The notes under the pieces were generated by a model. The model was not told where the DNA came from, searched no databases, and saw only the letters and a program-made list of their open reading frames with translations. 36,662 bases of DNA from an uncultured Pseudomonadota bacterium. Lineage in GTDB: Bacteria; Pseudomonadota; Alphaproteobacteria; Rs-D84. Positions 1 through 36,662 of this stretch are shown here, in pieces. The stretch is taken from NCBI GenBank assembly GCA_947165555.1, contig CAMVAR010000001.1, forward strand, positions 1-36,662, in the 5' to 3' direction. How positions within the stretch are numbered: position 1 is the stretch's first letter; every line of letters begins with the position of its first letter. Position numbers and translations under genes: made by a program.

Positions 1-59
1 AAAAAAACAATTCAGGCAAAATAAATGTCTGTTTTCCGGTCTTTTCGTAAAAAAGTATC

Positions 60-81
60 AAAAAGGCCGGCATTGCCGGCC
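60..81 (-). terminator. Rho-independent terminator downstream of pheT
   Basis: The hairpin GGCCGGC-ATT-GCCGGCC lies at 65-81. On the minus strand it is followed by TTTTT (plus-strand A-run at 60-64), about 30 nt past the pheT stop. Confidence 0.6.
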
Positions 82-112
82 GAAATGATAAAAAATGCAA
101 AAAACACCGGTA

Positions 113-2425
113 TTATTTATCACGCACATGGGCGGGACACTTTTTTTCCACCGCCGCGATTATATCGGCGTGTAATTTTCCAAGCTCTTGTTCCGACATT
201 TTTTCACGCGGTGTAAATGTAATTGTGAATGCGACGGATTTTTTACCGTCCGGCATTTCAAACGAATCAAAAATAACAATATCTGTTATCAAATTTGACA
301 CCGAACGCGCCGCAGCAACTAATTTTTCTGCCGGAAAATCATTTGGAACAACAAATGCAAAGTCACGTGTTATTGGTTGAAATTCACTCATCACAATCGG
401 ACCACGCGGTAAAACCCTGTGCGGCAGGTTTTCTATGTTTTCAACAATTCCAATACATACATTTGTTTTTATCTTTAATTTTTTCGCAACCGATGGATGC
501 AATTCGCCGAATTCCGCCAAAACATTTTTACCCTGCATTATTCGACCATAACGGTACGGATGCGCCCAAAGTGGCGGGTTTTCCGTATCGATTGTAAAGT
601 TTCGACCGTTTAATAATGATACTATGTCCGCCTTGACATCATATATGTCCACCGGACGATTACGTTTTTGCCAATGTTTCGGGGCCGTCACGCCGGTGCG
701 GACAATGCAAATTTCGGTATGTTGTTCATTCGGCGTATCGCCATCGAACACGGTGCCCACCTCGAACAAATTCAAATCCGGATACCCGCGTTTTTCATTA
801 TTGGCAACCGCAATCAACAGATTTCCCAACAAACCATTCCGCGCCGTATCTAAATCGACAATTATCGGGTTTGCAATACGAATTATCGGTTTTGTTGATA
901 ACAATTCTTCAACCCGCGAATTACCAAAGCCAAATGTAATTGATTCATTTAATCCACGATTTGCCAATTTGTGTTTTAATTCCAAAATCGTATCTGTATG
1001 CGGAACAACACAGGCATCATTAGACATTTCTTTTAGGCCGATTTTATCATACCCATAAATACGCGCCAATTCTGAAACGATTGTTTCTGGGATTGTTATA
1101 TCCGTTCTTTGCGGGTTTGGTGTGATTACCCAATCACCCGATTTATTGTTTTTGATTTCAAAATGCAATTTTTCCAATATCGCGCGTTGGGTATCATCAT
1201 CTAATTTTATTCCGGTTTTTTGTTCGAACATAGACGTGTTGTACACCACAGATTCCGGCGTATAGGACGCACGACCGGCAACCGACACATTCACAATTTT
1301 ACCACCACATTCGTCCATTATCATCTTGGCCGCCAATGCCAACGCGGCGGCCGTTCCATCCGGATTTATTCCACGTTCATAACGATACGAAGAATCGGTT
1401 GATATACCGTATCTTTTCGATGATTTACGAACAGTCACCGGGTCAAAATATGCAGATTCCAGAATAATATTCTTGGTATCATCCGATGTGCAACTGCGTG
1501 CGCCACCAACAACGCCCGCCAACGCAAGAATTCCCGCATCATCACATATAACCAAATCTTTGTCACACAGTTCGTATTCTGTACCGAACAGGTCTGTAAA
1601 TTTTTCATTTGGTTTTGCCATACGAACCGTAATATCACCGACAATTTTATCGGCATCAAAACAATGCATCGGTTGCGCCAAATCATAGCAAATATAATTT
1701 GTTGTATCGATTGGTGCATTCTTGGGATTTATTCCCGCAGATAACAACCGCGATTGTATTGTTTTATTCGAAGGTGAATTTTTTATCCCATGAATTTCAC
1801 AGAAACGGTATGTCGGACACGCGGACGGTGCCATCAAATTTACCTTTCTTGAACCGGATACGGATGATAATTCATCAATATTATTTTCAATGTATGTTCC
1901 GGCGCCGGCGACACTTAAATCCAACGCGATTCCGCGCACCGATAAATAGTCCGGACGATTTGGCGTAATAGATGTTTCAAATACGGTCGGACAATCAATA
2001 ACCGGGGTCCCGATTTTTGTGTTTTCTGGTAATTCAATAATACCGCTGTGGTCATTGTTTATACCCAATTCCAAACCACTGCACATCATACCATCGGACA
2101 CAACACCACGCAGTTTTCCACTTTCAATTTTATGTCCCTGGATTATACAGCCCGGCACCGCCAAAGCCGATACCAACCCCGTGCGCGCATTTGGTGCGCC
2201 ACATACAACCTGGCGTAATTTACCGGAACCATCATCAACCATCAACACGTGCAGATGGTCACTGTTTTTATGCGGTCGGCATTCCACAATTTTTGCGGCA
2301 ATCGGTGGCACCGGTTCGGATAAATCTTCAACCTCTAATCCGATTGCGGTCAATTTATCTGCGATTTCCCGTGGGGTTAAATCTGTATCAAGATATTGTT
2401 TCAACCATTCATAAGACCATTTCAT
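113..2425 (-). CDS. pheT: Phenylalanine--tRNA ligase beta subunit
   Basis: This is a 770-aa ORF. The N-terminus MKWSYEWLKQYLDTDLTPREIADKLTAIGLEVE is the classic PheT start. Its length and its position directly downstream of pheS fit. Confidence 0.97.
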   Translation of the reverse strand: MKWSYEWLKQYLDTDLTPREIADKLTAIGLEVEDLSEPVPPIAAKIVECRPHKNSDHLHVLMVDDGSGKLRQVVCGAPNARTGLVSALAVPGCIIQGHKIESGKLRGVVSDGMMCSGLELGINNDHSGIIELPENTKIGTPVIDCPTVFETSITPNRPDYLSVRGIALDLSVAGAGTYIENNIDELSSVSGSRKVNLMAPSACPTYRFCEIHGIKNSPSNKTIQSRLLSAGINPKNAPIDTTNYICYDLAQPMHCFDADKIVGDITVRMAKPNEKFTDLFGTEYELCDKDLVICDDAGILALAGVVGGARSCTSDDTKNIILESAYFDPVTVRKSSKRYGISTDSSYRYERGINPDGTAAALALAAKMIMDECGGKIVNVSVAGRASYTPESVVYNTSMFEQKTGIKLDDDTQRAILEKLHFEIKNNKSGDWVITPNPQRTDITIPETIVSELARIYGYDKIGLKEMSNDACVVPHTDTILELKHKLANRGLNESITFGFGNSRVEELLSTKPIIRIANPIIVDLDTARNGLLGNLLIAVANNEKRGYPDLNLFEVGTVFDGDTPNEQHTEICIVRTGVTAPKHWQKRNRPVDIYDVKADIVSLLNGRNFTIDTENPPLWAHPYRYGRIMQGKNVLAEFGELHPSVAKKLKIKTNVCIGIVENIENLPHRVLPRGPIVMSEFQPITRDFAFVVPNDFPAEKLVAAARSVSNLITDIVIFDSFEMPDGKKSVAFTITFTPREKMSEQELGKLHADIIAAVEKKCPAHVRDK

Positions 2426-8395: not shown

Positions 8396-10630
8396 ATGAA
8401 CCTGCTTATCGTTGAATCACCGTCTAAGGCAAAAACAATTGAAAAATATTTGGGGCGTGGTTGGCATGTAATCGCGTCGGTGGGACATGTACGCGACCTG
8501 GTTCCGGAAAATGGCAGTGTTGATACCGAACATGACTTTGCAATGCACTGGCAAATTATGCCGGGTAAAGAAAAACAAATAAAACTTATTACCGATAATG
8601 TACAAAAGGCCGATGCGGTATATCTGGCATCGGACCCAGACCGCGAAGGCGAGGCCATTGCGTGGCATATTTTAGATATATTAAATTCAAAGAAATTGTT
8701 GGGTAAAACACCCGTGTATCGTGTCGCATTTCATGAAATTACCAAACGGGCCGTGATGGACGCAATTGAACATCCGCGGGAAATTGATTCAAACCTGGTT
8801 GATGCGTATTTGGTCCGTCGGGCATTAGATTATTTAATTGGATTTGAAATATCGCCATTGTTATGGCGACGCAATTTGGGTAAATCGGCCGGACGCGTAC
8901 AATCGGTTGCGGTCAAATTGGTCGTTGACCGCGAACGCGAAATCGAAGATTTTAAATCGGTTGAATATTGGTCTGTGGCCGGACAATGTGATATTGCAAA
9001 AAAATCTTTTAACGCCGGGTTGGTATTTTTTGATGGTCAAAAAATTGAAAAGATGACATTGAAAAATTCTGATGATGTGGATAATGTTTTGCAACGGTTA
9101 AAAACACCGGTACACGCCGAAATATCACGTATAGATAAGAAAAAAACATCACATAAACCATACGCACCATTCACAACCAGTACTTTACAGCAAGAGGCCG
9201 CACGAAAATTATATTTTTCATCAAAAAAAACAATGTCTGTTGCACAAAAATTATATGAAAACGGGTTTATTACATATATGCGTACCGATGCAACAAATTT
9301 ATCTGCGGATGCGATTGGTGAAATAAGACGTTTTATCATGGAAAACTATGGTAATAAATTTTTGCCCACATCGCCAAATATATACCTTACAAAATCAAAA
9401 AATGCCCAAGAAGCACACGAAGCAATTCGTCCAACACACTTTGATTCGGCAACCAACGATTTAGAAGGTGATGAAAAAAAACTTTATGATTTAATATGGA
9501 AACGTACAATTGCGTGCCAAATGACAAATGCAGAATTTGATTCTGTATCGGTTGATATTTTAACTGATGATAAAATCGCAACATTTCATGCCGTCGGAAC
9601 AACACGTACATTTGATGGTTTTATGAAAATCTATACCGAAGACAAAGATGATAACGACGATGAAAATAATACAAAATTACCGCCAATGAATATTGGGGAT
9701 AATGTTATAATTTCAAAAATTACACCAGACCAACATTTTACCCAACCCCCCGCCAGATATACCGAGGCATCGTTGGTAAAAAAATTAGAAGAATTGGGTA
9801 TTGGGCGACCATCAACATACGCAACAATTATGTCAACTATTGTTGACCGTAACTATGTCGAACAAGATAAACAACGTCGTTTTCATCCGACGTCTGGCGG
9901 TTGGGTTATTGCCGCATATTTGGCAAAATATTTTTCAGATTTGGTTGATGTGAATTTTACCGCAAAAACCGAAGATACATTGGACGATGTGTCAAATGGA
10001 AAAACAGATAAAATTGCCGCATTAAACGATTTCTGGGGTAATACAAAAAATATGATTTCCGGGGCGCGTGATGTTAAAACATCTGATATTATTGATAATA
10101 TAAATTTATTTATGTATAAACATTTGTTCACCGACAACAATGATAAATGTCCGAAATGCGGTGGAAAACTGGGGATAAAATTGTCTAAATTTGGGCCATT
10201 TATCGGTTGTGAAAATTATCCAACATGTGATTATACCGCACGTATGACATCAAATGATACAACGGAAAAAACACAAACAAAAAATGAATCACGCGATTTG
10301 GGTAATGGTATTTCTTTTCGCATCGGGCGATTTGGACCTTATGTGACGGACGGCAAAAAAAATATCGCGGCGAAAAAATATACCGCTGATACAATAACAC
10401 TGGAAATCGCAAACGAATTATTATCGGGCGGCACACAAAAGGTGGAACCAATTGAAATTGGGAAAAATCCAACAACCGATAAAATGATTTATTTCTATCC
10501 GACCGGGCGTTATGGCGCATATATTTCAAGTAACAAGGTAAATGTTAGTGTCAAAGAACAACCAGATTTAGAAACCGCAATTGATTTGATAAACAATAAA
10601 AAACCGAAAAAAATGTTTAAGAAAAGGTAA
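8396..10630 (+). CDS. topA: DNA topoisomerase I
   Basis: This is a 744-aa ORF. It has a TOPRIM N-terminus (LLIVESPSKAKTIEKYLG, DPDREGEAIAWH) and an active-site Tyr region (GFITYMRTD). It has a single C4 zinc ribbon (CPKCGG...CENYPTC) and a Lys-rich tail. Confidence 0.96.
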   Translation: MNLLIVESPSKAKTIEKYLGRGWHVIASVGHVRDLVPENGSVDTEHDFAMHWQIMPGKEKQIKLITDNVQKADAVYLASDPDREGEAIAWHILDILNSKKLLGKTPVYRVAFHEITKRAVMDAIEHPREIDSNLVDAYLVRRALDYLIGFEISPLLWRRNLGKSAGRVQSVAVKLVVDREREIEDFKSVEYWSVAGQCDIAKKSFNAGLVFFDGQKIEKMTLKNSDDVDNVLQRLKTPVHAEISRIDKKKTSHKPYAPFTTSTLQQEAARKLYFSSKKTMSVAQKLYENGFITYMRTDATNLSADAIGEIRRFIMENYGNKFLPTSPNIYLTKSKNAQEAHEAIRPTHFDSATNDLEGDEKKLYDLIWKRTIACQMTNAEFDSVSVDILTDDKIATFHAVGTTRTFDGFMKIYTEDKDDNDDENNTKLPPMNIGDNVIISKITPDQHFTQPPARYTEASLVKKLEELGIGRPSTYATIMSTIVDRNYVEQDKQRRFHPTSGGWVIAAYLAKYFSDLVDVNFTAKTEDTLDDVSNGKTDKIAALNDFWGNTKNMISGARDVKTSDIIDNINLFMYKHLFTDNNDKCPKCGGKLGIKLSKFGPFIGCENYPTCDYTARMTSNDTTEKTQTKNESRDLGNGISFRIGRFGPYVTDGKKNIAAKKYTADTITLEIANELLSGGTQKVEPIEIGKNPTTDKMIYFYPTGRYGAYISSNKVNVSVKEQPDLETAIDLINNKKPKKMFKKR

Positions 10631-10633
10631 AGT

Positions 10634-10912
10634 ATGAATATATTTCAAAAATATAAACTTTACAGAAATATCATAAAACAAAAACCGGTTTGTGTTATTG
10701 TTTATAATGATAAATATATGATTTATGATACAGATTCTTATAAAGTTGATATTTATTCTATTAAAAAATCGGATTTTTTGTATATTAAACCCCGTTTTTT
10801 TAAGCCTATATACTCTGCCAAAGTTCACAAAAAAAATGAAAAAAGTTTTGTACTTTTCGATGGTTTTATGGCAAAAAGATTATTTGAATATGGAAAACAA
10901 AACCAAAAATGA
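10634..10912 (+). CDS. Hypothetical 92-aa Lys/Tyr-rich protein, translationally coupled to dnaG
   Basis: An AAAGG Shine-Dalgarno sequence precedes the ATG, which lies 3 nt after the topA stop. The stop overlaps the dnaG start (ATGA at 10909-10912). I recognise no family, and the region is extremely AT-rich. Confidence 0.4.
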   Translation: MNIFQKYKLYRNIIKQKPVCVIVYNDKYMIYDTDSYKVDIYSIKKSDFLYIKPRFFKPIYSAKVHKKNEKSFVLFDGFMAKRLFEYGKQNQK

Positions 10913-12522
10913 CAAAATATGACAATAATTTTACCGACCAATTACGTGAACGACTTTCAATTGTCGATGTTGTATCGCGGCGTGTGCCTTTGAAAAAAAA
11001 AGGTCAAAATTATTGGGGGTGTTGCCCGTTTCATAATGAAAAAACACCGTCTTTTTCTGTCAATGAAGACAAAGGTTTTTTTCACTGTTTCGGTTGTGGA
11101 AAGCACGGTGACATTATTTCGTTCACAATGGAAACTGAACATGTTGATTTCAAAACCGCGATTGCCGAATTGGCCGATATGGCGGGATTAAAGTTGCCGG
11201 ATTATAAACCGAAATCACAACAACAAATTGATGCGGAAGAATCATATATTTCAATCACGGCGGCGGCGGCGAAAATGTACGCGGAAAAACTTTTTACACC
11301 CGATGGCGCGCATGCGTTGGAATATGTGCGTCGCCGCGGTTTTAGTGATGAAATGATAAAAAAATATGGTATCGGATATGCACCAAAAAATAATATTATT
11401 TCAAACAAATTTGCAAATACTAAACAGGAAAAAATTATTGCGACGGGTCTTGTACGCCGCGGTGATTACGGGTTATATGATTTCTTTCGTGATAAATTAA
11501 TGTTTCCAATTTTTAATACACATGGACAAATTGTTGCGTTTTCCGGGCGTTCATTGGATGGGTCAGAACCCAAATATATAAATACAACCGATACAGAAAT
11601 GTTCCATAAACGACAAACTTTGTTCGGGTTTAATTTTGCACGCGAATCTATTCACCGTGCAAACCGCGCAATTATTGTCGAAGGTCAAATTGACGCAATT
11701 CAGATGCAATGTCATGGTTTTGGTGAAACGGTTGCACCACTTGGCACCGCATTGACCGAAGACCATATTGCAATTTTATGCAAGGCGAACAGAAACATTA
11801 TTTTTTGTTTTGATGGTGATAACGCCGGACAAAAGGCCGCCGCACGTGCATGTGGTTTAATAATACCATTTTTACGCGATAATTCCGATGTGCGTTTCGC
11901 ATTTGTCACCGGTGGCAAAGACCCTGATGAAATTTTACGCCGGGGCGGGGCGGGGGATATGAAAAAAATCATTGATGATGCGGTGCCATTGGTGGATTTT
12001 TTATGGAATACGGCAAATAAAAATTTCCTTGTTAATACACCATCTGGGAAAACCCAGGCGGAAAAATTTATTAATACAGAAATTGAAAAAATTAATGATA
12101 AATTATTACGTTCTCAATTCGCCCAAGAATATAATAAACGAAAATTTAACGAATGGCACAAATGGAAAAAAACACCGGAAATAGTACCTATATCGGTTCC
12201 TAAGACAGATTCTGTTATAAAAAATACTATTATTTATATTGTAAATAAATATCCAGAAATCGCAGAACGATATGGTGATTTTATAGGTGGTTTTAATCTG
12301 GATTTTAATACAGATGTAAATGTGGATTTAAATTTAGATTTAAAGTCTGCGGAAAAATACCTGGTGTCGTTAAAATTACAAAAATATATCGAAAATTTAG
12401 AGTTAAAAAAACGTGAAATTACCATTGGTGCGTTATCAAATGGAAATGATGTACGTGACGAAATACGCCGTATAGACGATGAAATAATAAAAATGAAAGA
12501 ACGTTTTGATTTGTTGGTGTAA
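10909..12522 (+). CDS. dnaG: DNA primase
   Basis: This is a 537-aa ORF. It has a CHC2 zinc finger (CCPFHNEKTPSFSV...FHCFGCGKHGD) and a TOPRIM region (IIVEGQIDAI...CFDGDNAGQKAA). Confidence 0.95.
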   Translation: MTKYDNNFTDQLRERLSIVDVVSRRVPLKKKGQNYWGCCPFHNEKTPSFSVNEDKGFFHCFGCGKHGDIISFTMETEHVDFKTAIAELADMAGLKLPDYKPKSQQQIDAEESYISITAAAAKMYAEKLFTPDGAHALEYVRRRGFSDEMIKKYGIGYAPKNNIISNKFANTKQEKIIATGLVRRGDYGLYDFFRDKLMFPIFNTHGQIVAFSGRSLDGSEPKYINTTDTEMFHKRQTLFGFNFARESIHRANRAIIVEGQIDAIQMQCHGFGETVAPLGTALTEDHIAILCKANRNIIFCFDGDNAGQKAAARACGLIIPFLRDNSDVRFAFVTGGKDPDEILRRGGAGDMKKIIDDAVPLVDFLWNTANKNFLVNTPSGKTQAEKFINTEIEKINDKLLRSQFAQEYNKRKFNEWHKWKKTPEIVPISVPKTDSVIKNTIIYIVNKYPEIAERYGDFIGGFNLDFNTDVNVDLNLDLKSAEKYLVSLKLQKYIENLELKKREITIGALSNGNDVRDEIRRIDDEIIKMKERFDLLV

Positions 12523-14836: not shown

Positions 14837-15142
14837 ATGAGACAACAGGTACTAAAAGCATTGGCAAATCCGTCACATTTGTTCTTTGTACCGTACACAT
14901 TGGCCGTGATAAATTTCATGGTTCAGTTTTGTATTTTTATTATTTTATTTACAATTGGTATTTTTGTTTTTGGAATAGAAGATGTTGCCGGATATATAAA
15001 CCCATTGTATTTTTTAATATCTGTATGTGTTGTTCATATGATTTTAGCGCGTTATTCAAAACGTGACCCACAACTTGGCCAAATTTTAATCGCAAAAATA
15101 CGTATGTTAAAAAATAAAATACCACGGAGGTTGGCCGCATGA
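14837..15142 (+). CDS. virB3: Type IV secretion system protein VirB3/TrbD-like
   Basis: This is a 101-aa ORF with two hydrophobic helices. It has the VirB3-type N-terminus (KALANPSHLFFVPYTLAVINFM) and ...ARYSKRDPQLGQIL. Its stop overlaps the virB4 start (ATGA). Confidence 0.75.
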   Translation: MRQQVLKALANPSHLFFVPYTLAVINFMVQFCIFIILFTIGIFVFGIEDVAGYINPLYFLISVCVVHMILARYSKRDPQLGQILIAKIRMLKNKIPRRLAA

Positions 15143-17556
15143 TAGATGGTTTTTTTGGATATTTTGCCGGCGGTGGTTTTTCAGAAACGATGACATTAAC
15201 TATTATGGCCATCGCGGTGATTTTTGTATTTATTATATTAATGATATATGTGCCAACAATTGTAAAACATGTTTTTCCAAAATTTGGTTATAAACATTAT
15301 TATCAATATATTCCATTTCAAACCGTATATACCGATGATTCGTTGGAATTATCAGATGGATGTTTGGTACGTGTGTATGCAATATCTGGGGTACAAACCA
15401 GTATGCAGACCGATGAACAAAAAGAAAAATTTTTAGATTTACGGGCGCAGTTATTTAATCAAATTCATGACCCGAACGTTATATTGCGTTTTTTTACAAC
15501 ACGCGATGCCGTTGGTGAAAATACAGATTATGAATTTGACCAACCGGTTTTACAAAAAATTTATGATAAATGGCATGCCCAGGGGTTACGTATATTTATC
15601 AATAATTATTATGTTGTGTTATCGGTGCGCGGGATAAATACACGTGATAAATTAAATCAATATAGTAATTATATAGAATCTATTTTGGCACCATATAATC
15701 CGCGTGTTTTGAAAAATAAATCACGTAATAATATGGCAAAGTTTTTTGGTCGTATTTTTTCACCAATTACAAAACCAAATCCCGTCGTGTGTGATGAAAA
15801 AATTACAGAGTTATCAACCGTTGATGATGTGGAATTTTTACGTAATGGTATTGTTCGTTATATAAGTGGTAATCGTGAATATTTTGCGGCGTTGATGTCT
15901 TTTCGGGCGGCACCTGATTTCTTGGACGAAGATTTTTATGATTCTGTTAATACAATTCAAACAGAAATGATTTGTATGAATGGTTTTAAAATCATGGATT
16001 CAACCGATGTTGATACGGTTATGCGACAAAGACGTAGTGTTGCATCAAAAGAAAATGATTCAACCGAAGAACAAATTTCGCATGCACAATCGGTCATGGA
16101 TGAAAATGTGTCTGGGAATCAGACGTTGGTGAATTATTATCCATTGTTTGTAATTTTTGGAAAATCAATCGAAGAATTAACAGAATATGTTGATGAATTT
16201 AAAAAAATTTCTGCATCGTTTGGCGTGTCACCAATACAGGAAAATTTTGCAACCAAGGTTTCGTGGTTTTCGATGGTGCCGGGATTTGATACATTTCCAC
16301 GAACATTTAAAATGCTATCGCGGGCCGCCGCAATTAGTATACCAATGTCCAGTGCACCACGCGGTATTTCGGATTCAGATTGGGGAAATGGACCGTTGGT
16401 TGTTTTTCCCACGGCCCAGGGTACCCCATATCAATTTCAATTTCATGTATCATCTGCGCCGGCCGCGGTTGGTCATACATTAACAATCGGTCCAACCGGT
16501 GGTGGTAAAACAACATTATTTTCATTCCTTATTGCACAATCGTTGCGACATAAAAAACTAAAAGCGTTTTTCTTTGACCGTAACAAAGGTGCAGAAATAT
16601 TTACACTGGCCGTTGGTGGAAAATATATCACAATGCAAGGTAAAGAAAAATCTGATACGACATTTTTAACACATCTTAATCCATTAAAAATGCCGGATAC
16701 GGTCGCAAATCGTGCATTTTTACGTCGATGGTTTGCAATGATTTCGGAACAAAATGATGCAATATCGTCCGATGAAATTGCGCGCGCGGTATCAGTTAAT
16801 TATGATTATTTATCAGATAAAGATAGAATGTTAAAAAATCTGTGGGAAAGTTGTTTTTCATCCGCAGGAAAAATGCGCCCCGCGTTGAAAAAGTGGGTGG
16901 ACCCGTTGCAATATGGTGATATATTTAATGAAGATAGTGATACACTGGATTTACAATCACGTTTAACTACATTTGATTTTACCGATATTTTACAAGATGC
17001 GGTTTTGGCACCGGCGGTTATTTCATATATATTGCATCGTATAAATAATACAACCGTTTCAGGTGGAAATCCATCGCTTATTATGATAGACGAAACCGCG
17101 CCGATGTTGGAAAATAAAATGTTCCGTGATAACTTTATCACCGGTTTACAAGAAGGACGTAAAAATCGTCAGGCATATATGGTCGCGTTCCAACGTGCAA
17201 ATGTACTGGATAAATTGGGTATTGGTGATGTTGTTCGTGGTCAGGCTCAAACGATTATGTTTTTCCGGAATCCCGCCGCGGATGCGTCTGATTATGAACA
17301 TTGGAATTTAAATCCATTGGAAATGGCATTTATCCAAGGCAAGGCGTATCCAAATCTGAAACGTGCGGTTTTGTTATCACGTCCTGTGAATAATGAATCG
17401 GTTATTTTAAATACAGAATTGGGTGGATTAGGAAATATGTTGCGTTTATTTGAATCTGGACGTTCATCGGTGTTATTGGCCGAAGAACTGTATCGACAAT
17501 ATGGTTCGGCATTTGTTAACGAATACCTTAGAAAACAAGGGGTTGGTGATTTATAA
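15139..17556 (+). CDS. virB4: Type IV secretion system ATPase VirB4/TrbE family
   Basis: This is an 805-aa ORF. It has Walker A (IGPTGGGKTTLFSFL), Walker B (SLIMIDETAPML) and downstream GRKNRQAYMVAFQ. An extra N-terminal TM helix is present. Confidence 0.93.
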   Translation: MIDGFFGYFAGGGFSETMTLTIMAIAVIFVFIILMIYVPTIVKHVFPKFGYKHYYQYIPFQTVYTDDSLELSDGCLVRVYAISGVQTSMQTDEQKEKFLDLRAQLFNQIHDPNVILRFFTTRDAVGENTDYEFDQPVLQKIYDKWHAQGLRIFINNYYVVLSVRGINTRDKLNQYSNYIESILAPYNPRVLKNKSRNNMAKFFGRIFSPITKPNPVVCDEKITELSTVDDVEFLRNGIVRYISGNREYFAALMSFRAAPDFLDEDFYDSVNTIQTEMICMNGFKIMDSTDVDTVMRQRRSVASKENDSTEEQISHAQSVMDENVSGNQTLVNYYPLFVIFGKSIEELTEYVDEFKKISASFGVSPIQENFATKVSWFSMVPGFDTFPRTFKMLSRAAAISIPMSSAPRGISDSDWGNGPLVVFPTAQGTPYQFQFHVSSAPAAVGHTLTIGPTGGGKTTLFSFLIAQSLRHKKLKAFFFDRNKGAEIFTLAVGGKYITMQGKEKSDTTFLTHLNPLKMPDTVANRAFLRRWFAMISEQNDAISSDEIARAVSVNYDYLSDKDRMLKNLWESCFSSAGKMRPALKKWVDPLQYGDIFNEDSDTLDLQSRLTTFDFTDILQDAVLAPAVISYILHRINNTTVSGGNPSLIMIDETAPMLENKMFRDNFITGLQEGRKNRQAYMVAFQRANVLDKLGIGDVVRGQAQTIMFFRNPAADASDYEHWNLNPLEMAFIQGKAYPNLKRAVLLSRPVNNESVILNTELGGLGNMLRLFESGRSSVLLAEELYRQYGSAFVNEYLRKQGVGDL

Positions 17557-29061: not shown

Positions 29062-29499
29062 ATGAAAAAATATTTTGGTTTTATGTTGTCGGCGTTGGTG
29101 CTGTTTGGATGCGGCGGGTACGTTAAGAATGAAAATGGCAGTCAATATATAAAACAACTGGATGGTGAACCAATTGGTTGTATGTTTTTGTATAAACTGG
29201 AAACAGAGATTTCGGTATATGACCAAGAAGATGCGCGACGTTATTTGGAAAATCGTATCGCAGACCAGGCCCGTCCCGGAAATGCGTACTGGATTGTTAG
29301 TCAACGGACAAGACCAAATGAATGGGTTGTGTTTGGTCCGGAGCGCGCCTTTGTTTTGGCTGCAAATGTTTATAATTGTCCAAATTTGAATACCGTGCGG
29401 ACCGCACGTTCGGATAGTCCAATGCCGGAAATGGAACCGGTGCCGTGTCGTGGGGCGGGGTTATTTTATGGCGTGCAAACGAATGGTTGTGTCCAATAA
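29062..29499 (+). CDS. Small lipoprotein (145 aa), possibly DUF4156-like
   Basis: It has a signal peptide with a lipobox (MKKYFGFMLSALVLFGC). An AAAGGAAAGGG Shine-Dalgarno sequence lies upstream. It contains 5 further Cys. The family guess is weak. Confidence 0.7.
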   Translation: MKKYFGFMLSALVLFGCGGYVKNENGSQYIKQLDGEPIGCMFLYKLETEISVYDQEDARRYLENRIADQARPGNAYWIVSQRTRPNEWVVFGPERAFVLAANVYNCPNLNTVRTARSDSPMPEMEPVPCRGAGLFYGVQTNGCVQ

Positions 29500-29523
29500 G
29501 TTATATGTTTTTGTAAAAAAATA

Positions 29524-29551
29524 AAACCGTTATATCAATAACGGTTTTTTT
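29524..29551 (+). terminator. Rho-independent terminator after the lipoprotein gene
   Basis: The hairpin AAACCGTTAT-atca-ATAACGGTTT is followed by a T-run. Confidence 0.8.
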
Positions 29552-29555
29552 ACAC

Positions 29556-29585
29556 TGGAATTAGAAATAGGTTTTGTGTTATAAT
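29556..29585 (+). promoter_or_regulatory. Putative extended -10 promoter for the pilus-like operon
   Basis: TGTTATAAT lies at 29577-29585, with TATAAT at 29580-29585. A weak -35 element, TGGAAT, lies 18 nt upstream. The 9-mer is identical to the one at the virB3 promoter. Confidence 0.45.
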
Positions 29586-29614: not shown

Positions 29615-30883
29615 TTGGCACAACAATATATACAAATTAAACGAAAAAAATATGCGGCTGGATTATTCTGGCAACCAATGGTTTCGGGATTTACACCACG
29701 GGCATACGCATATAAATTGGCGCGGGGAATTGACCGGCGGATGCGGTTATACATAAATCAATTGGGAATGATTGGTTTGGGTGGACGTGCGTTCGGGCAT
29801 CGGTCGGGAATGCCATCGATTGCAATAGAAATAATAAATGCGTTACCCGGTTATTCTTCGATAATGGGTGTGTTTAATGTTGGAAATAAATATGTTCTGG
29901 TTGCGGTAAGAAACGGTGTTATTTTGCATGATATGTTATTTGAAGATGAAAATGCCGCACGTGAAAAATATGTGGAATTATCTGAAATTCCGGATTGGAA
30001 TGCGCTATTCGCGCCTGCTGTGTGGGGTATGCCGCGTGCGGTTGAACGTGATTTAATTGAAATGATTACCGGAAGTAGTCATGGTGTGTTGCGCCCGATT
30101 AGTCGTGTGGGTGCGGGTATGTTGTCGTTAATTATACTGTTCGGATTTGGTTTATTGTTTTTATATTTATTCCGTGAACCATTAAATCAGATTATGGCAC
30201 CGACACCACAAATATCAAAAATAAATCCAGAATTAGCCCAGGAATATAAACGCCAAATTGAAGAAAAAAATAAAGAATTAGATAAACAATATAATATACG
30301 CCAAGAACCAGTTATTGAACCACTGGTTATGCCGTATGATATGTTGCCGGATATGGGGGTGCGTGCAGATGTGTGTTATCGTGCAATTGCATTTTTAATG
30401 CAACCAATTACGGGATGGAACCAGACGGTTGTTGAATGTGGCGAAACACATGCAAACGCAACGTTTAAACGGTCGTTTGGAACACTGGATGATTTCTATG
30501 CGATGGCCGAAAATTTAATGCCCGGTGTATTTGTCCAAGAAATTAGTGATGATGAAATTTTGGTGCGTGCAAAATTACCGGAACGTATCGGTAGAAAATC
30601 GGTTGATATGCGTACACCGGATGATATTGTTCGTGATTTGACCAGTCGTTTTCAATCAATGAACACAGATGCAGAAATTACCGTTGTTGTTGATACAATA
30701 GCAAATGAAACGCAATCCGCAGATATTTATCTAATTGAATTATTTGCGGAATCTAAATTAACCCCGGAACAGTTTATGAAAATTTTTGATGGGGTTGATG
30801 GTGTGTACATGACCAAGGTTACCTGGGGCGTGGCAAGGAAAATATGGAACTATGAGGTGATAATCTATGCAAAACAAAATTAA
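29615..30883 (+). CDS. PilO/PilO2-like type IVb pilus accessory protein (bitopic)
   Basis: The start is a TTG preceded by GAGAGAGA. The N-terminus IKRKKYAAGLFWQPM resembles the ...FVAGLFWQ... start of type 4b PilO2 proteins, as I remember them. A single TM helix (GAGMLSLIILFGFGLLFLYLF) is present. The gene order fits the R64/PAPI-1 pilO-pilP-pilQ-pilR arrangement. Confidence 0.6.
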   Translation: MAQQYIQIKRKKYAAGLFWQPMVSGFTPRAYAYKLARGIDRRMRLYINQLGMIGLGGRAFGHRSGMPSIAIEIINALPGYSSIMGVFNVGNKYVLVAVRNGVILHDMLFEDENAAREKYVELSEIPDWNALFAPAVWGMPRAVERDLIEMITGSSHGVLRPISRVGAGMLSLIILFGFGLLFLYLFREPLNQIMAPTPQISKINPELAQEYKRQIEEKNKELDKQYNIRQEPVIEPLVMPYDMLPDMGVRADVCYRAIAFLMQPITGWNQTVVECGETHANATFKRSFGTLDDFYAMAENLMPGVFVQEISDDEILVRAKLPERIGRKSVDMRTPDDIVRDLTSRFQSMNTDAEITVVVDTIANETQSADIYLIELFAESKLTPEQFMKIFDGVDGVYMTKVTWGVARKIWNYEVIIYAKQN

Positions 30884-31568
30884 AATGTTATTTGTGTGTG
30901 TGGCGGCATTATTTTGTGTGGCGTCGTCGTACGCTGATTTGGAATACGATACACAATTCGAAGATGTTATTGATGTTATCGATGAAACGGATAATATCAC
31001 GGTTAATTCGCCCGAAGATATTTCCGCAGACGCAATCGAAGAATATCAGGTCGAAGGCTCTTTGTTTCAACAAATTACTGATTTGGAACAAGAAAAGATT
31101 TTAATGCAGTTGGAAAAAGAACGCGCGCAATTAAATTTGGATTTGGACCGATTGGCCGCAGAAAAAATTAAATTGCATTTAGAAATAGATAATCTGTCGG
31201 GGCGCGCAGAACAACAACAGCAAGAATTAGAAGCTGAACGTGCGCGTCTAGATGCCGAAGCCCGTCGCATGGAAACGGAACGAAATGCAATCGCAACACG
31301 ACAGGCAGAGCCAGTCGTGCGTACACAGCCTGTGGCGTCAGAGAAAAAAGAAACAGAGTTTGAACAAAAATATAAACTGGTCAACGTGTTCGGTGCCGGT
31401 GCGCAATTGCAGGCCACAGTTCAAGATTTAGAATCCGGTCAAAATAAACGTATTAGTGTTGGTAAAGAAATGGATGGATATACGGTAAAATCTATATCAT
31501 TGGATGACGGAATTGTTTTTGTTAATGGTGACGAGGTAAGAACATTAAATATATCGGGTAAAAATTAA
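30867..31568 (+). CDS. PilP-like periplasmic protein with coiled coil
   Basis: A GAGGTGA Shine-Dalgarno sequence lies upstream. The signal peptide is MQNKIKMLFVCVAALFCVASSYA. A long Glu/Arg/Gln coiled coil follows. The C-terminal beta domain is YKLVNVFGAGAQLQATVQDL...VGKEMDGYTVKSISLDDGIVFVNG, which is PilP/GspC-HR-like. The gene overlaps the upstream gene. Confidence 0.5.
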   Translation: MQNKIKMLFVCVAALFCVASSYADLEYDTQFEDVIDVIDETDNITVNSPEDISADAIEEYQVEGSLFQQITDLEQEKILMQLEKERAQLNLDLDRLAAEKIKLHLEIDNLSGRAEQQQQELEAERARLDAEARRMETERNAIATRQAEPVVRTQPVASEKKETEFEQKYKLVNVFGAGAQLQATVQDLESGQNKRISVGKEMDGYTVKSISLDDGIVFVNGDEVRTLNISGKN

Positions 31569-31572
31569 CAAA

Positions 31573-33210
31573 ATGAAATCGAACGAAAATAGCGTTTTGA
31601 ATAATATGTCTAATATAGAAAAACCGTCGGTGCCGGCCGGTTTGGAACATGCCGATAACAAGGATATTATTGATTATTTGTTCACCGAAAATAATCATCT
31701 GTTGACGGCCCCGGGTGCCGAATTTGAATTACCAAAAGATACCCAGGGATTATTGGCATATTTTTCCGGTGGGTGCATCATTATTTCACGTACGCATAAA
31801 TTTGATGGTCGGGTGTTGGCGTTTATAGATTTGTTGCGCAGAAAAAATCGTCCAATGCGTGAACCGTTTTATTCTGATTTGGGTTTGGTTTCCGACATAT
31901 ATAAATACCATGAAAATAAGTTGGGGGGTGGGGACCGGTCGCGTTTGGATTATAACAACCAAATGCAAAAAGATTTTGTTGATATTGTTGCCCGTGCCGC
32001 TGCACAAAAAGTATCAGATATTCATATCAAGGTAGCCGACCAAACGACTATATTTTTCCGTATAGATGGCAGTATGCAACCGGTTTTAGAATTTAATGCC
32101 GGGTGGGGCGAATCTTTTGTGCGCGCCGCATTCGCTTCATCTGATATTTCAAATGCAAATTATGCCCAGAATGAGTATCAATCTGCGCAAAAGGATGGGC
32201 GTACACCATTGCGCGGAACCAAAGATTTGTATTTGCCCCATGGAATTTTGGGTATAAGAATGCAATTTAATCCAATCGCATTCGGCAGTCGTTATGTGGT
32301 GATGCGCTTGCTTTACGACAATCCATCGGAAAGTATCAAGATAGAGCAGGAATTTGGTAAATATGAACAAAATCTGTTGCGGCGGTTGCGGTCGTTTCCA
32401 ACAGGATTGGTCGTGGTTGCCGGTCCAACCAGTTCGGGTAAGTCAACGACACTGGTTCGGAATATGGTTTTGATGTTAAAAGAACATCATTATGAAATAA
32501 ACCTGATTACGGTAGAAGACCCCGTCGAACAAAAAATATTTGGTGCAAATCAAATTCCGGTTGTAAATACCGCCAACGAAGAACAACGCGAAAACGAATA
32601 TACCGAGGCATTGGCCGCCGCGTTGCGCAGTGACCCTGATACATTGATGGTTGGTGAAATTCGTACATTGGCCGCCGCACAATTAACAGTCAAGGGCGCA
32701 TTGTCCGGCCATAATGTTTGGACGACGTTACATGCAAATTCTGCAATGGCCGCATTGGTACGATTGTTAGATATGGGGGTAGAGGCGTTTAAGTTAAAAG
32801 AAGAAACAATGATGCGTGGTTTGGTATCTATGCGTTTGTTTAAACGTTTATGTCCACATTGTCGGCAACGCCTGATAGAACATCCAGAATTACCGGAATA
32901 TAAACGTGTTAATGATTGTTTCGGTGAATTGGGTCTGCGCCAGGTTTTTGTTCGTGGGGTGGGGTGTGAACACTGTAACGGGACCGGAACCCAGGGACGT
33001 ATCAAGGCCGGCGAAGTTATTATTACAAATAGTGAATTTTTACAGTTGGCATTGGCGGGTAATACCGATGCAGCCGTCAAATATTGGTTGGAAGAATTAG
33101 ATGGTCGTACATTAAAAGAATCTGCGTCGTCGTTGATGTTGCGTGGTATTATCGGTGTCGATGAATTGGAACGATGGGTCGGATTATTGGACCGGCCGGG
33201 GGTGTATTAA
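31573..33210 (+). CDS. GspE/PilB-family secretion ATPase (type IVb PilQ-like)
   Basis: This is a 545-aa ORF. It has Walker A (VVAGPTSSGKSTTL), an Asp box/Walker B (LRSDPDTLMVGEIR) and a His box (GHNVWTTLHANSA). A tetracysteine motif is also present (CPHCRQ...GCEHCNGTG). Confidence 0.93.
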   Translation: MKSNENSVLNNMSNIEKPSVPAGLEHADNKDIIDYLFTENNHLLTAPGAEFELPKDTQGLLAYFSGGCIIISRTHKFDGRVLAFIDLLRRKNRPMREPFYSDLGLVSDIYKYHENKLGGGDRSRLDYNNQMQKDFVDIVARAAAQKVSDIHIKVADQTTIFFRIDGSMQPVLEFNAGWGESFVRAAFASSDISNANYAQNEYQSAQKDGRTPLRGTKDLYLPHGILGIRMQFNPIAFGSRYVVMRLLYDNPSESIKIEQEFGKYEQNLLRRLRSFPTGLVVVAGPTSSGKSTTLVRNMVLMLKEHHYEINLITVEDPVEQKIFGANQIPVVNTANEEQRENEYTEALAAALRSDPDTLMVGEIRTLAAAQLTVKGALSGHNVWTTLHANSAMAALVRLLDMGVEAFKLKEETMMRGLVSMRLFKRLCPHCRQRLIEHPELPEYKRVNDCFGELGLRQVFVRGVGCEHCNGTGTQGRIKAGEVIITNSEFLQLALAGNTDAAVKYWLEELDGRTLKESASSLMLRGIIGVDELERWVGLLDRPGVY

Positions 33211-33213
33211 AAC

Positions 33214-34284
33214 ATGAACAGATTGGAATTATTTTATGCCAAAATGGTGTGCAGGTTTAGCAATAATAAAAGAATTGCAATTTGGCGTAAATTGGCTTCT
33301 TTGTTGAAAAATGACTTTACATTGGTTAACGCATTAAACCGGTTACAGATGATTGAATCACGGGGCGGGGCCAAACCGAACGAACCGTTTGCAATATGTC
33401 TGCGGGAATGGGAAAAAAATCTTGAACGGGGATTAAGTTTTTCCGATGCGACACGTGGTTGGGTTCCGGCCGAAGAAACATTATTGTTGACGTCCGGAAA
33501 CATGTCCAGTTTGGTTGTTGCGCTGGAAAATGTTGGTAATATAATTGTTGCGAACAAGCGTATCGGTTCTGCTGTGTTTGGCGCGATTGCGTATCCGTTG
33601 TTATTATTGGTTTTGGTGTTGGGCATAATTGTTATGGTTGGATTATACCTGGTGCCACCATTGGCTGATGTGGCGGGTGATGGTATGGTGTGGCGTGGAT
33701 GGGCATCGTCATTGATTTGGTTGTCCAATTTAGCGGGAAAATATTGGCATATATTTACGGTATGTTTTATTGTTTTGTGCATTGTTGTTTGGTGGTCTTT
33801 GCCAATTTGGGCCGGCCGAATGCGCGCCGTGTTTGACCGGTTGCCACCGTGGAGTGTTTATAAGGTTCGTATATCGGTTGGTTGGATGATGTCGTTGGCG
33901 GCGATGGTTTCGTCGGGTGTAACGGTGCCGGACGCAATGCGTATGTTGGCGGACAATTCCAATCGGTATCTGCGCAATATATTGGAACGAACATTACGGT
34001 ATATTGCGAACGGTGATAATTTGGGGGATGCGTTGGCAAATACCGGCTTGGATTTCCCGAACCAGGAAATTATTGGTGATTTGACGATTTATGCCGACAT
34101 GAATGATTTTGACGATAACCTGGGCCAGATATCCAAAGACTATCTGGAAAATTCGGTAAAGCGCATTGAATCCATATCCAGCAGTTTAAATACAATTGGA
34201 ATTTTACTGATATCTGCGGTAATTGCGTGGATTGTGTTGGGTACATTCCAGATGCAGGACCAGATTACAGCATTCCTTAGTTAA
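33214..34284 (+). CDS. GspF/PilC-family inner-membrane platform protein (type IVb PilR-like)
   Basis: This is a 356-aa ORF. It has two cytoplasmic helical repeats, each followed by TM helices, which is the T2SS-F layout. It starts 3 nt after the ATPase stop. Confidence 0.85.
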   Translation: MNRLELFYAKMVCRFSNNKRIAIWRKLASLLKNDFTLVNALNRLQMIESRGGAKPNEPFAICLREWEKNLERGLSFSDATRGWVPAEETLLLTSGNMSSLVVALENVGNIIVANKRIGSAVFGAIAYPLLLLVLVLGIIVMVGLYLVPPLADVAGDGMVWRGWASSLIWLSNLAGKYWHIFTVCFIVLCIVVWWSLPIWAGRMRAVFDRLPPWSVYKVRISVGWMMSLAAMVSSGVTVPDAMRMLADNSNRYLRNILERTLRYIANGDNLGDALANTGLDFPNQEIIGDLTIYADMNDFDDNLGQISKDYLENSVKRIESISSSLNTIGILLISAVIAWIVLGTFQMQDQITAFLS

Positions 34285-34342: not shown

Positions 34343-34351
34343 TGGTATAAT
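34343..34351 (+). promoter_or_regulatory. Extended -10 element upstream of the Cys-rich gene
   Basis: TGGTATAAT lies 27 nt before the ATG at 34378. An AAGGGG Shine-Dalgarno sequence lies 7 nt before the start. Confidence 0.4.
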
Positions 34352-34377: not shown

Positions 34378-36662
34378 ATGAGATTTCTTTTAAAAATTGT
34401 TGGTTTTTTGCCGGTTTTGTGCATGTTTGATGCGGGCGCGGCGGTGCGTGCGGGTGCGGGTGGAAACACCAATTCGACCGGGCGTATTTCGGTTTCGCCA
34501 TCGATTGGTGTAACATCGACGGCCGGTATGGCGGCGGCGCGGCGTTTGCCGACGATGGTTTCGGCGAAAAATGTTGCGGCGGCGGCGATTGCGGCGGCAT
34601 CTGTTAATACAACAACGTCATCATCATCGTCGTTAATGACGGAACGCGAATGTGTTGATGCCTATACCGAATGTATCAAGGATGCCGATGTTTGTGGTAT
34701 TGGTTTTGAAGAATGTACAACATCTGAATTATTCTATGCAAAAAAGCCCCAGTGTAACAGTGTTTTGTTGCAATGTGATGCAACCGGTATCAATACATTG
34801 TTTGGGACATCGAATACGGATAATCTGGCGACGAAAAATACGACCGGTGAATATGTGTATCCCACCGCGTCCAGTATCCTGGGCCAGTTTATAGAGGCCG
34901 GTGCCATCAATAATCGCCTTGATACGACGGCATGCGTAAAACGCTATACATCATGTTTAAAGAAAGAGAGTGTGTGTGGCGAATATTTTGAATTATGTAC
35001 ATCAAATGCCGAATTTAAAAAGCAAAAGATTTTCTGTGAATCGACATTGGCCCGGTGCCAGGATGGTGGCCTGAATGAATTGTTGGGTTCGACAAATGTG
35101 TCCGCGAACCCCACATCGGCCAGTCGTATTGGTGTCATGATTCGCGAAGGTGCGGATTTGGCCGCGGTTAATGCCGTGTCCACGTGTTACAAGGTTGCCG
35201 ACCAATGTATCCTGTCGGCGTGTACCGCGAACCCATATAAATGTATAGTGGACAGTAACACCGAATTGGTTATGCGTACCGATGATATAAACGAAGATAA
35301 TACGGTCAAGGCCGACACCACCGGCGCATTTATTGATGCGATTACGACGTCAACGGTTTCGCGTTATATCCGGTCATCGTGTGCCGAAACGATTGGGGGC
35401 AACAAATATTGCTATATGACCGTGAATGACGGGCGTGTTCCGACGGCGTCCCAGATTAACGACGAAGAAAACCGTTCGGATGTATATTCTGATATTTATT
35501 CGGCGCGCATGAACAGTGCGTTACGTGAAAAAATCCAAAAATTGGCCGACACATTTGATAAAAAGACCAAGGATAAATGTTCCGATACGATTACCGCCTG
35601 TGCGATGCGTTCGTGTGGTTCGGGATTGGGGTCGGCGTGTTATGAGTTGGTGTTTGGTTCCGGGCGTAATTGCTTTGACGGGACGACGGGCGGTGGCACA
35701 TGTTCGATTAACGGCAATTCAACATATAACGAGGTTAAGATTGGATGTGAATCAATTGTGAATACCGATGCAAATTGTAAATATGCGGCGGCATCCGTTG
35801 GTTCCAAGACATACGGTTATGAATATAACACCGCCGATGCATTCGACAGATTGTTCCCGGCATTGGAAAATGGCACGGACCCGATTGGGGTTGTGTCCCG
35901 ATTGAATGCGTCGTTGGCGGAAAATTATAACAATGCCGCGATTGAAAGAATGGCCAAACAGTGCAAAAATACGGCGGTCAGTTGTATTCGTTCACTGTGT
36001 GGTTCGGACTTTACAAATTGCTATCGTAACCGTACGGATGTTATGACCGATACGTATGCGACCGCATCACATCCGGATTCACAGGCGGCAACCGGCACGG
36101 ATGAAAACGGTCATACGATTACATATGATTCTTCGGCGTTTGATAAAAGTATGAACAAGGTTGGCGGGGTACTTGACTTTACGATTGTTCGTGGTTTGTG
36201 TATAAATACCGTCAAAGAGGCCGATGTGTGCGATGAACATTTGAAAATTCAGGCAATTAAGACTTACACCGGCCAGGGTGGTAAAACCGGTTGGGGTGAT
36301 AATAAGAGTGTTCGTGACGCATGGGTTGGTGCGGTCAAAGATGGCTATTCGGCACGCGTTAGCCGTGATGACGAGGCCGTATTGATTGGTTGTCGTGCAT
36401 CAGATTCCAAGGGTGGAAAATGTGACATCAATGTTATTGCGGAATGTGATACCGTTGATACGAATGGTTGCGTCTATGATGTCGAAGCGTACGAGGCACG
36501 TAATGTTTACCAGTTGAATATGGCGGCGAATACATTATTCCAAGAGGTTATGGGTGACCTGGAATTAGAGGCCCAGGCAAAGTATAACGCCAAATTGACG
36601 CGTGAACAGAATATGTGCATGTCCGCGAACAGTGGTGGCATTATGGGACGTAAAGATATTGC
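34378..36662 (+). CDS. Very large secreted Cys-rich repeat protein (5' partial, at least 761 aa, runs off the window)
   Basis: This ORF is absent from the track because no stop is reached. I translated the frame by hand from ATG 34378 to 36662 and found no stop. The signal peptide is MRFLLKIVGFLPVLCMFDAGAA, followed by an Ala/Ser/Thr-rich linker. By manual count there are about 38 Cys. A tandem 94-aa module carries the pattern C-x6-C-x6-C-x6-C-x12-C-x6-C. The antisense ORFs here are shadows. Confidence 0.85.
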   Translation, partial: MRFLLKIVGFLPVLCMFDAGAAVRAGAGGNTNSTGRISVSPSIGVTSTAGMAAARRLPTMVSAKNVAAAAIAAASVNTTTSSSSSLMTERECVDAYTECIKDADVCGIGFEECTTSELFYAKKPQCNSVLLQCDATGINTLFGTSNTDNLATKNTTGEYVYPTASSILGQFIEAGAINNRLDTTACVKRYTSCLKKESVCGEYFELCTSNAEFKKQKIFCESTLARCQDGGLNELLGSTNVSANPTSASRIGVMIREGADLAAVNAVSTCYKVADQCILSACTANPYKCIVDSNTELVMRTDDINEDNTVKADTTGAFIDAITTSTVSRYIRSSCAETIGGNKYCYMTVNDGRVPTASQINDEENRSDVYSDIYSARMNSALREKIQKLADTFDKKTKDKCSDTITACAMRSCGSGLGSACYELVFGSGRNCFDGTTGGGTCSINGNSTYNEVKIGCESIVNTDANCKYAAASVGSKTYGYEYNTADAFDRLFPALENGTDPIGVVSRLNASLAENYNNAAIERMAKQCKNTAVSCIRSLCGSDFTNCYRNRTDVMTDTYATASHPDSQAATGTDENGHTITYDSSAFDKSMNKVGGVLDFTIVRGLCINTVKEADVCDEHLKIQAIKTYTGQGGKTGWGDNKSVRDAWVGAVKDGYSARVSRDDEAVLIGCRASDSKGGKCDINVIAECDTVDTNGCVYDVEAYEARNVYQLNMAANTLFQEVMGDLELEAQAKYNAKLTREQNMCMSANSGGIMGRKDI

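Follow-up and report, generated by a model that had tools for sequence, protein, structure and literature searches.

Why should four genes that read as the inner-membrane core of a type IVb pilus stand, one close behind the other, after lpx housekeeping genes and before the gene of a cysteine-rich exoprotein, with no pilin, secretin or prepilin peptidase in view? The question was raised by an earlier note on contig CAMVAR010000001.1, which saw the order pilO-pilP-pilQ-pilR in positions 29615-34284 and wondered about a repurposed or minimal filament or secretion machine. The entire contig, 36,662 bp long, is the window of this study, and all statements about the window end at its position 36662; it belongs to Candidatus Enterousia, in the order Rs-D84, a group of Alphaproteobacteria from gut and rumen whose genomes are smaller than 1 Mb. 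The answer that we consider probable, with some confidence, is that the four genes are the inner-membrane assembly operon of a chromosomally fixed, dispersed type IVb pilus of the R64/PAPI-1 kind, and that the operon looks orphaned because the pilus system is fragmented across the chromosome.

Members of Rs-D84, Enterousia included, are widespread in the guts of humans, ruminants and birds. Their genomes, of ~0.75-1.0 Mb, encode no flagella, no respiration and little biosynthesis, and for Rs-D84 a lifestyle dependent on a partner has been proposed (PMC12306168). Type IV pili are spoken of in that work for a different lineage only, not for Rs-D84/Enterousia, and no papers were found on RF32 together with pilus.

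The motor operon and its affiliation

All four genes are on the plus strand (Table 1), and the open reading frame (ORF) listing agrees with the tight packing that had been claimed: the first two genes overlap by 17 nt, and the gaps after the second and the third are 4 and 3 nt. Family matches and the gene order of reference type IVb clusters both bear out the pilO-pilP-pilQ-pilR assignment.

The ATPase and platform calls had seemed solid at first reading and they have remained so. In the translation of the ATPase, which scores well on T2SSE, one can read Walker A (GPTSSGKST), Walker B (LMVGEIR), the His box (GHNVWTTLHAN) and the tetracysteine motif (CPHC...CEHC). Its best match in the Protein Data Bank (PDB) is BfpD (8dze; 255.8 bits over residues 37-529), with PilF, GspE and PilB reaching at most 156 bits; by sequence its place is beside BfpD rather than GspE or PilB. 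Those plasmid matches of the ATPase that were inspected (Methylovorus, Bosea and an E. coli Cof-like cluster) are all inside type IVb clusters, the order in these being (OmpA)-TcpQ-PilN secretin-PilO2-PilP-ATPase-platform-pilin...PilV. The platform, with its two T2SSF domains, shares 30-34% identity with its counterparts in the reference clusters, and core-protein identity to these clusters is 23-34%.

Recognition of the first two genes had been weaker, and here the orthologues help. The PilO-like protein reaches 24.6 bits on PF06864 (E 1.4e-5, residues 14-349), just under the gathering cut-off of 26.7; most of its homologues carry a precomputed PF06864 match, three of them are named 'type 4b pilus protein PilO2', and residues 1-143 of the window protein match an annotated Methylovorus PilO2 in BLASTP with an E of 8e-11. 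(The definition of the PilO2 family is taken from PMC3984277.) The profile match to a solved structure, PilO2Bp (4bz0, E 0.004), covers the first 73 residues only. An AlphaFold (AF2) model has a helix at 164-185 and a confident C-domain of two alpha/beta repeats, and the protein is bitopic, with a cytoplasmic N-domain, one transmembrane helix at ~165-190 and a periplasmic C-domain. In the fold search PilO 2rjz ranked only 48th, and the low-confidence N-domain gave no confirmation of an actin-like fold.

The window PilP, at 34.5 bits, falls a hair's breadth short of the TIGR03021 cut-off of 34.65, and its orthologues match that model in 14 cases out of 14 (best E 3.2e-10). It has a signal peptide, a coiled-coil insert of ~70 aa that is highly conserved in Enterousia, and a C-terminal beta domain; its gene lies between those of PilO2 and the ATPase, as in the reference clusters. 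Alignment with annotated PilPs by hhalign is weak (E 7.7e-4, probability 25%) and confined to the C-terminal 52 residues, in the correct register, and a PDB search returned coiled-coil noise only. The earlier note had left room for a first pair of genes without PilO/PilP similarity; such similarity, to PF06864 and TIGR03021, was found.

Could the motor belong to one of the better known relatives of these pili? Profile searches against models for type II secretion systems (T2SS), Tad and type IVa pili all stayed far under the cut-offs, and the type IVb assignment stands. For T2SS, GspE gave 222 bits against 630 and GspF 54 against 424; for Tad/Flp, one TadA-named NCBIfam model was matched, TIGR03819 (TadA family conjugal transfer-associated ATPase), at 35.8 bits against a cut-off of 373, and the platform is a single two-domain protein, not a split TadB/TadC; for type IVa, PilB gave 200 bits against 676, and the PilO here is of the PF06864 type, not PF04350. 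The operon is PilO2-PilP-PilQ-PilR, the inner-membrane motor of an R64/PAPI-1-type type IVb pilus.

The PilO-like protein has 875 relatives, some of them annotated 'type 4b pilus protein PilO2' in alphaproteobacterial metagenome-assembled genomes. Scanning the GTDB species representatives with it gave 77 loci, of which 76 are of the Enterousia clade at 44-71% identity (identity values have the window as reference throughout, and labels such as L001 or L118 denote loci or contigs of relatives). Nearly all of these are labelled Candidatus Enterousia or uncultured gut or rumen Alphaproteobacteria. The 77th match, L081, on a contig labelled Lactobacillales, is an unrelated canonical secretin-PilO2-ATPase cluster with 28% identity to the window PilO. 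Labels are not beyond reproach: L054, plainly an Enterousia locus, bears the label Bacteroides fragilis, a case of probable mis-binning or chimerism, as are L081 and L091. The last of these, a secretin locus, was not used as context; it looks chimeric, with foreign-looking ORFs upstream and the N-terminus of the secretin replaced.

Across all loci tblastn detected the four operon genes wherever the relatives' contigs reach far enough. The order DUF374-LpxK-LpxC-lipoprotein-PilO-PilP-ATPase-platform, the first three identified in the window by family searches, is kept in ~65 species, with gyrB downstream in most of them, commonly ~1.5-5 kb away past a variable spacer. Across the clade the ATPase keeps 75-88% identity, the platform 57-82%, PilO 44-71% and PilP 43-66%. 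As the earlier note had said, a terminator as well as the lpx genes precedes the operon: the hairpin ahead of pilO looks like a bidirectional one, parting the lpx and lipoprotein genes from pilO, and comparable hairpins are 5' of pilO in some relatives (L004, L016, L018, L038), not in all. In the aligned 75 nt ahead of pilO (L001-L080) a T(G/A)TGTTATAAT block, followed by a AGAGAGAGAA ribosome-binding site and the TTG start, is conserved across the clade; the regular expression TA[TAC]AAT upstream of pilO matches 59 of 75 loci. The G+C content of the operon matches its surroundings, and there is no integrase, relaxase or repeat near it. From the conserved synteny, the identities, the promoter element and the unremarkable G+C it follows that the operon is an old, constrained, independently promoted chromosomal unit and not the cargo of a mobile element.

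Table 1. Features of the window in and around the motor operon
Feature	Positions	Strand	Particulars
145-aa lipoprotein	29062..29499	+	lipobox LFGC; between lpxC and pilO
Hairpin	29523..29548	+	11-bp stem AAAACCGTTAT/ATAACGGTTTT, A and T runs on both flanks
Extended -10 promoter element TGTTATAAT	29577..29585	+	~30 nt upstream of pilO
pilO2-like gene	29615..30883	+	422 aa, TTG start; PF06864 PAP_PilO
pilP-like gene	30867..31568	+	233 aa; TIGR03021 pilP_fam
Extension ATPase (PilQ/BfpD clade)	31573..33210	+	545 aa; T2SSE 220 bits
GspF/PilC-family platform (PilR-like)	33214..34284	+	356 aa; PF00482, two T2SSF stretches, 92 bits
-10 element TGGTATAAT	34343-34351	+	ahead of Cys-rich gene, resembles TGTTATAAT of pilO
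Cys-rich Sec-signal protein	34378..36662	+	~761-762 aa visible, open at contig end

Pilus partners in the relatives

That the contig has no pilin, secretin or prepilin peptidase was correctly noted at the outset. Pfam scans of its larger ORFs brought up housekeeping genes plus VirB3 and VirB4 only, with no secretin or A24 domain among the large ORFs, and no window ORF has a class III leader by strict class III and Flp motif scans or by a looser scan for G-x4-E and a hydrophobic helix. The strict scans gave nothing in the first relatives' loci either, and it took the looser one to find the pilins of the clade. A single Flp-motif match turned up, in L045; the stretch past the motif is not hydrophobic, and the match reads as chance.

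In two of the relatives, L061 and L066, the whole pilin block abuts pilO, directly upstream of it. Their minus strand carries an operon for proteins of 451, 405, 439, 175 and 152 aa, ending with rluD; the three large ones are pilin-like, with starts RG/NVLVEL, RG/ASITEV and RG/NFLLQA each leading into a hydrophobic stretch, and the 175-aa protein has a zinc ribbon plus a transmembrane segment. On the plus strand dnaX is followed by a 152-aa pilin and an OmpA-family lipoprotein. Both the operon with the three large pilin-like proteins and the dnaX-pilin-OmpA block are found away from pilO in other species, and a second pilin class, of 154-158 aa, lies between uvrC and rluD. The N-terminus of the 152-aa pilin is MKxESG/RSLIEV (MKTESG/RSLIEVIG... 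in L061 and L066, the slash standing after the leader), with a hydrophobic helix and, further on, a C112-C139 pair. Its family has 1,380 relatives, some of which NCBI names 'type II secretion system protein'. To judge by an AF2 model built on 36 relatives (pLDDT 84), the 152-aa pilin has a type IVb fold: the 16 best PDB matches of the model are all type IVb pilins, namely CofA and TcpA as filaments and the S. Typhi PilS, with TM scores of 0.44-0.73.

A side observation concerns the company that this pilin keeps. In L082-L086 and L095 (9999-10459) its start overlaps or abuts the dnaX stop and the gene for the OmpA-family lipoprotein comes 1 nt later, so that a pilus subunit is apparently co-transcribed with a replication gene.

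The secretin is also there. L029, which shares the lpx synteny of the window, has the C-terminus of a PilN-like secretin at the start of the locus, 9 kb upstream of pilO (phmmer with reference secretins). In L090 a TcpQ-domain (PF10671) protein is followed by a secretin related to that of L029, which scores 250.9 bits on TIGR02520 (the PilN family) and 100 bits on MshL. It had been called as two ORFs, of '97 aa' and '441 aa' (9681-11286), split by a scaffold N-gap; the first carries an LSGC lipobox and runs into the gap, and the two are therefore one PilN-family lipoprotein secretin of ~540 aa. Secretin relatives are almost only on short contigs or are fragmentary, which suggests that the gene often breaks assemblies.

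Put together, the clade has TcpQ, PilN, PilO2, PilP, PilQ, PilR, a pilin of type IVb fold and three large pilin-like proteins, essentially the set of R64, PAPI-1 and Tfp7, split over at least three loci among housekeeping genes. The suspicion of a repurposed or minimal machine accordingly finds no support at the level of the clade. Of the expectation that a canonical type IVb pilus might appear once more sequence was added, all but one part came true in relatives: the prepilin peptidase was not found.

How does this compare with pili that have been studied? The R64, PAPI-1 and Burkholderia pseudomallei Tfp7 systems (the 'Tfpb R64 variant') have the same core order of PilO2 (PF06864), PilP (TIGR03021), PilQ and PilR. 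Like Tfp7 and the Methylovorus and Bosea plasmid clusters, the Enterousia clade pairs a PilN-family lipoprotein secretin with a TcpQ-like protein, and its large pilin-like proteins are reminiscent of PilV. PAPI-1 and Tfp7 share with Enterousia the lack of a peptidase gene in the locus; they borrow one encoded elsewhere. What sets Enterousia apart from the R64 type is that its system is chromosomal, apparently vertically inherited and distributed over at least three loci amid lpxC, dnaX and suf, rather than being one plasmid or integrative and conjugative element (ICE) operon; that its PilP has the ~70-aa coiled-coil insert; and that its pilin, at 152 aa, begins with a leader of 6 residues and has Arg at +1. 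Nor were PilM, PilT, PilU or a shufflon seen in its loci.

To the bundle-forming, toxin-coregulated, CFA/III (Cof) and Longus pili of enteric pathogens (BFP, TCP, CFA/III, Longus) the ties are through BfpD, the best solved relative of the ATPase, and through CofA and TcpA, which the pilin model fits best (TM up to 0.73). The E. coli Cof-like cluster shares the order TcpQ-secretin-PilO2-x-ATPase-platform, and this group also has large minor pilins and operon-linked secreted proteins with which those of Enterousia may be compared. However, these are single operons of plasmids or pathogenicity islands with their own A24 peptidase, whereas the Enterousia genes are dispersed and the peptidase was not found; their pilins are of 180-200 aa with long leaders, and that of Enterousia is shorter, with a short leader. 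There is likeness to T2SS, too: the ATPase is of the GspE family and has the tetracysteine motif, the platform is of the GspF family, a secretin is present, and the major subunit has ~150 aa and a short leader. But there is no GspC, GspL or GspM here, PilO2 and PilP being present instead, the clade secretin is of the PilN family and not GspD, and the pilin fold finds its matches among type IVb pilins alone. From type IVa/MSH systems the clade differs in its secretin, with 100 bits on MshL against 251 on PilN.

By homology the machine would work as follows. A hexameric ATPase of PilQ/BfpD type would drive the PilR platform, which would lift processed pilins out of the inner membrane, while PilO2 and the periplasmic PilP would link this motor to the PilN lipoprotein secretin, stabilised by the TcpQ-like protein. 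The filament would be built from the 152-aa pilin with its type IVb fold, and the three pilin-like proteins of 400-450 aa would probably prime or tip it.

Arguments for and against a dispersed pilus

Several observations weigh against this picture and they deserve to be set out together. Partner loci were seen only in species whose PilO is 49-53% identical to that of the window; its closest group (PilO identity 66-71%) yielded none, and the window's own genome was covered by the 36,662-nt contig alone, which has none. With its leader of 6 residues, Arg at +1 and a mature part of 146 residues, the pilin departs from classical type IVb prepilins. The AF2 model of PilO is mediocre (pLDDT 68, with the N-domain below 50) and matched no PDB fold significantly. 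A retraction ATPase of PilT type was not seen in the fetched loci. Lastly, phmmer, tblastn and a GxGD[VI]K motif scan found no A24 prepilin peptidase in 2.55 Mb of fetched Enterousia-related sequence, the query being an A24 peptidase of an E. coli type IVb system and the search covering the fetched loci, not whole genomes; the matches of the motif scan were PlsY false positives only.

TCP works without a retraction ATPase (PMC5207764). As to the peptidase, PAPI-1 and Tfp7 borrow one encoded outside their operons. For the window's own genome we infer the presence of the partner genes from the clade-wide spread of the PilO and pilin families and from the tight conservation of the ATPase.

What of secretion? 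The gene that directly follows pilOPQR in the window encodes, as had been noticed, a cysteine-rich exoprotein, with a Sec signal and 5.0% Cys against a median of 0.88%. Its family counts 133 representatives (50% clustering), 40-69% identical over the whole visible length, is ~1,035-1,200 aa in full and has no Pfam domain; the protein is not a pilin. A tblastn search found no homologue of it in the 77 pilO loci. In 7 contigs, however, an orthologue of 38-50% identity stands immediately behind rluD, where the minor-pilin operon ends, on the same strand: L095, 1-1932(-), and the metagenome contigs L098, L102, L103, L104, L109 and L118, at ~1-2000(-). With the window gene behind the motor operon, the family thus abuts a pilus operon in two arrangements. 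Further Cys-rich secreted ORFs are beside pilus loci in L026, L029, L031, L036, L085 and L091.

It could be, then, that the machine is a secretion device instead of, or besides, an adhesive pilus, with a short filament pushing Sec-exported proteins such as the Cys-rich one through the PilN secretin. Type IVb pilus systems do export operon-encoded factors by way of a large minor pilin, CofJ via CofB in CFA/III and TcpF via TcpB in TCP (PMC6048534, PMC10120004, PMC9565799), which makes a link of the Cys-rich protein to the pilus plausible. Yet what speaks for it is gene adjacency, in a sample biased towards pilus loci and in genomes that are rich in Cys-rich proteins anyway; the Cys-rich gene has a promoter-like element of its own, and hydrophobic C-terminal segments in its family suggest anchoring, not release. 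We regard this reading as unlikely.

Still less likely, and we think it quite improbable, is an orphan, minimal or repurposed core, in which PilO, PilP, ATPase and platform work without pilin, secretin or peptidase, for instance as a novel membrane machine. The 36.6-kb contig has no partner gene, in the closest relatives the 10 kb flanking the operon on each side have none, and the A24 peptidase turned up nowhere in the fetched sequence. But other species of the clade have secretin, TcpQ, pilin and minor pilins besides the operon, with pilin genes adjacent in L061 and L066, and the pilin family, at 1,380, is no less widespread than that of PilO. The ATPase, moreover, is 87-88% identical to that of close relatives and 75-83% to that of species carrying the partners, the pattern of one conserved function. 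That the operon is the thin-pilus module of a conjugative plasmid or ICE (R64 or PAPI-1 style) in a chromosomal insertion is hardly credible: the closest characterised systems are indeed plasmid- or ICE-borne (PMC3984277), and VirB3 and VirB4 are 12 kb upstream in the window, but the operon sits between lpxC and gyrB in those ~65 species, free of mobility genes and repeats, with a conserved promoter, matching G+C and a divergence that tracks that of its housekeeping neighbours.

Returning to the dispersed type IVb pilus, its likely role, in so far as gene content can tell, is attachment to a partner or host cell, DNA uptake, or both, with secretion of surface proteins as an alternative that does not exclude these. 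The grounds are an organism with no flagellum and little biosynthesis, in a clade reported to be without nucleotide biosynthesis and with candidate genes for DNA uptake: ComEC, with DUF4131 and Competence domains, is near a pilus locus in L095 (18667-20459), and L029 3033-4055, also near one, reads by eye as DprA, no domain search having been run on it. Both are consistent with DNA uptake in the clade. A functional analogy is offered by the episymbiotic Patescibacteria/Saccharibacteria, which in tiny, biosynthesis-poor genomes keep a pilus, ComEC and DprA, and whose pili have been proposed to serve partner attachment and DNA uptake. Their pili are of type IVa or Com-like and they have no outer membrane, whereas Enterousia is diderm, with type IVb genes and a secretin. 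The lifestyle of Rs-D84 has been compared with that of such episymbionts (PMC12306168).

One may go a step further and picture Enterousia, an uncultured gut symbiont, as having turned a type IVb pilus of plasmid type into a dispersed core organelle. With the clade-specific ~1,100-aa Cys-rich exoprotein this would serve attachment or secretion in a partner-dependent lifestyle, and might do so in the absence of a conventional A24 peptidase; the picture is speculative and, taken as a whole, we rather doubt it. Whatever its fate, a pilus set kept in at least 76 species, with an ATPase 75-88% identical, is the likeliest structure for contact with a partner or host or for DNA uptake, and the pilus is a concrete target for microscopy, metatranscriptomics and enrichment of Enterousia. 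It also carries a caution for automated system callers: a reduced genome may split a machine among housekeeping operons, so that on a single contig it seems incomplete or novel.

Neighbours of the operon

The 145-aa lipoprotein, whose gene is separated from pilO by the hairpin and the promoter element, is present in nearly all relatives that retain the lpx block, at 34-80% identity, and had no match in family searches. It was considered as a pilotin or a TcpQ/PilL analogue and left unassigned, having neither a family match nor similarity to TcpQ or OmpA references. Its ARRYLENRIADQARPGNAYWIV segment may resemble RcsF/DUF4156-type lipoproteins.

The type IV secretion genes for VirB3 (101 aa) and VirB4 (805 aa) are at 14837-17556. 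Their block is syntenic in many relatives, with VirB4 73-94% identical; there are no further VirB genes in the window, and this system, too, looks dispersed.

At 20028-24139 a 318-aa signal-peptide protein is followed by one of 1,058 aa, neither with a family match. In the larger the N-terminal half is Cys-rich and the middle Gly/Ala-rich and hydrophobic, and there is a metalloprotease-like HEHGH (HExxH) motif; a homologue of the smaller, at 48% identity, is encoded right behind the platform gene in L041 (15587-16516). As hidden pilus parts the two were set aside, with no pilin N-terminus and no family to commend them. Just upstream of the DUF374-lpx block is a tRNA-Met (CAT) gene, at 26186-26262(-), and a YgiW/YdeI OB-fold stress protein (124 bits) is encoded at 19318-19668(-), next to lrgAB.

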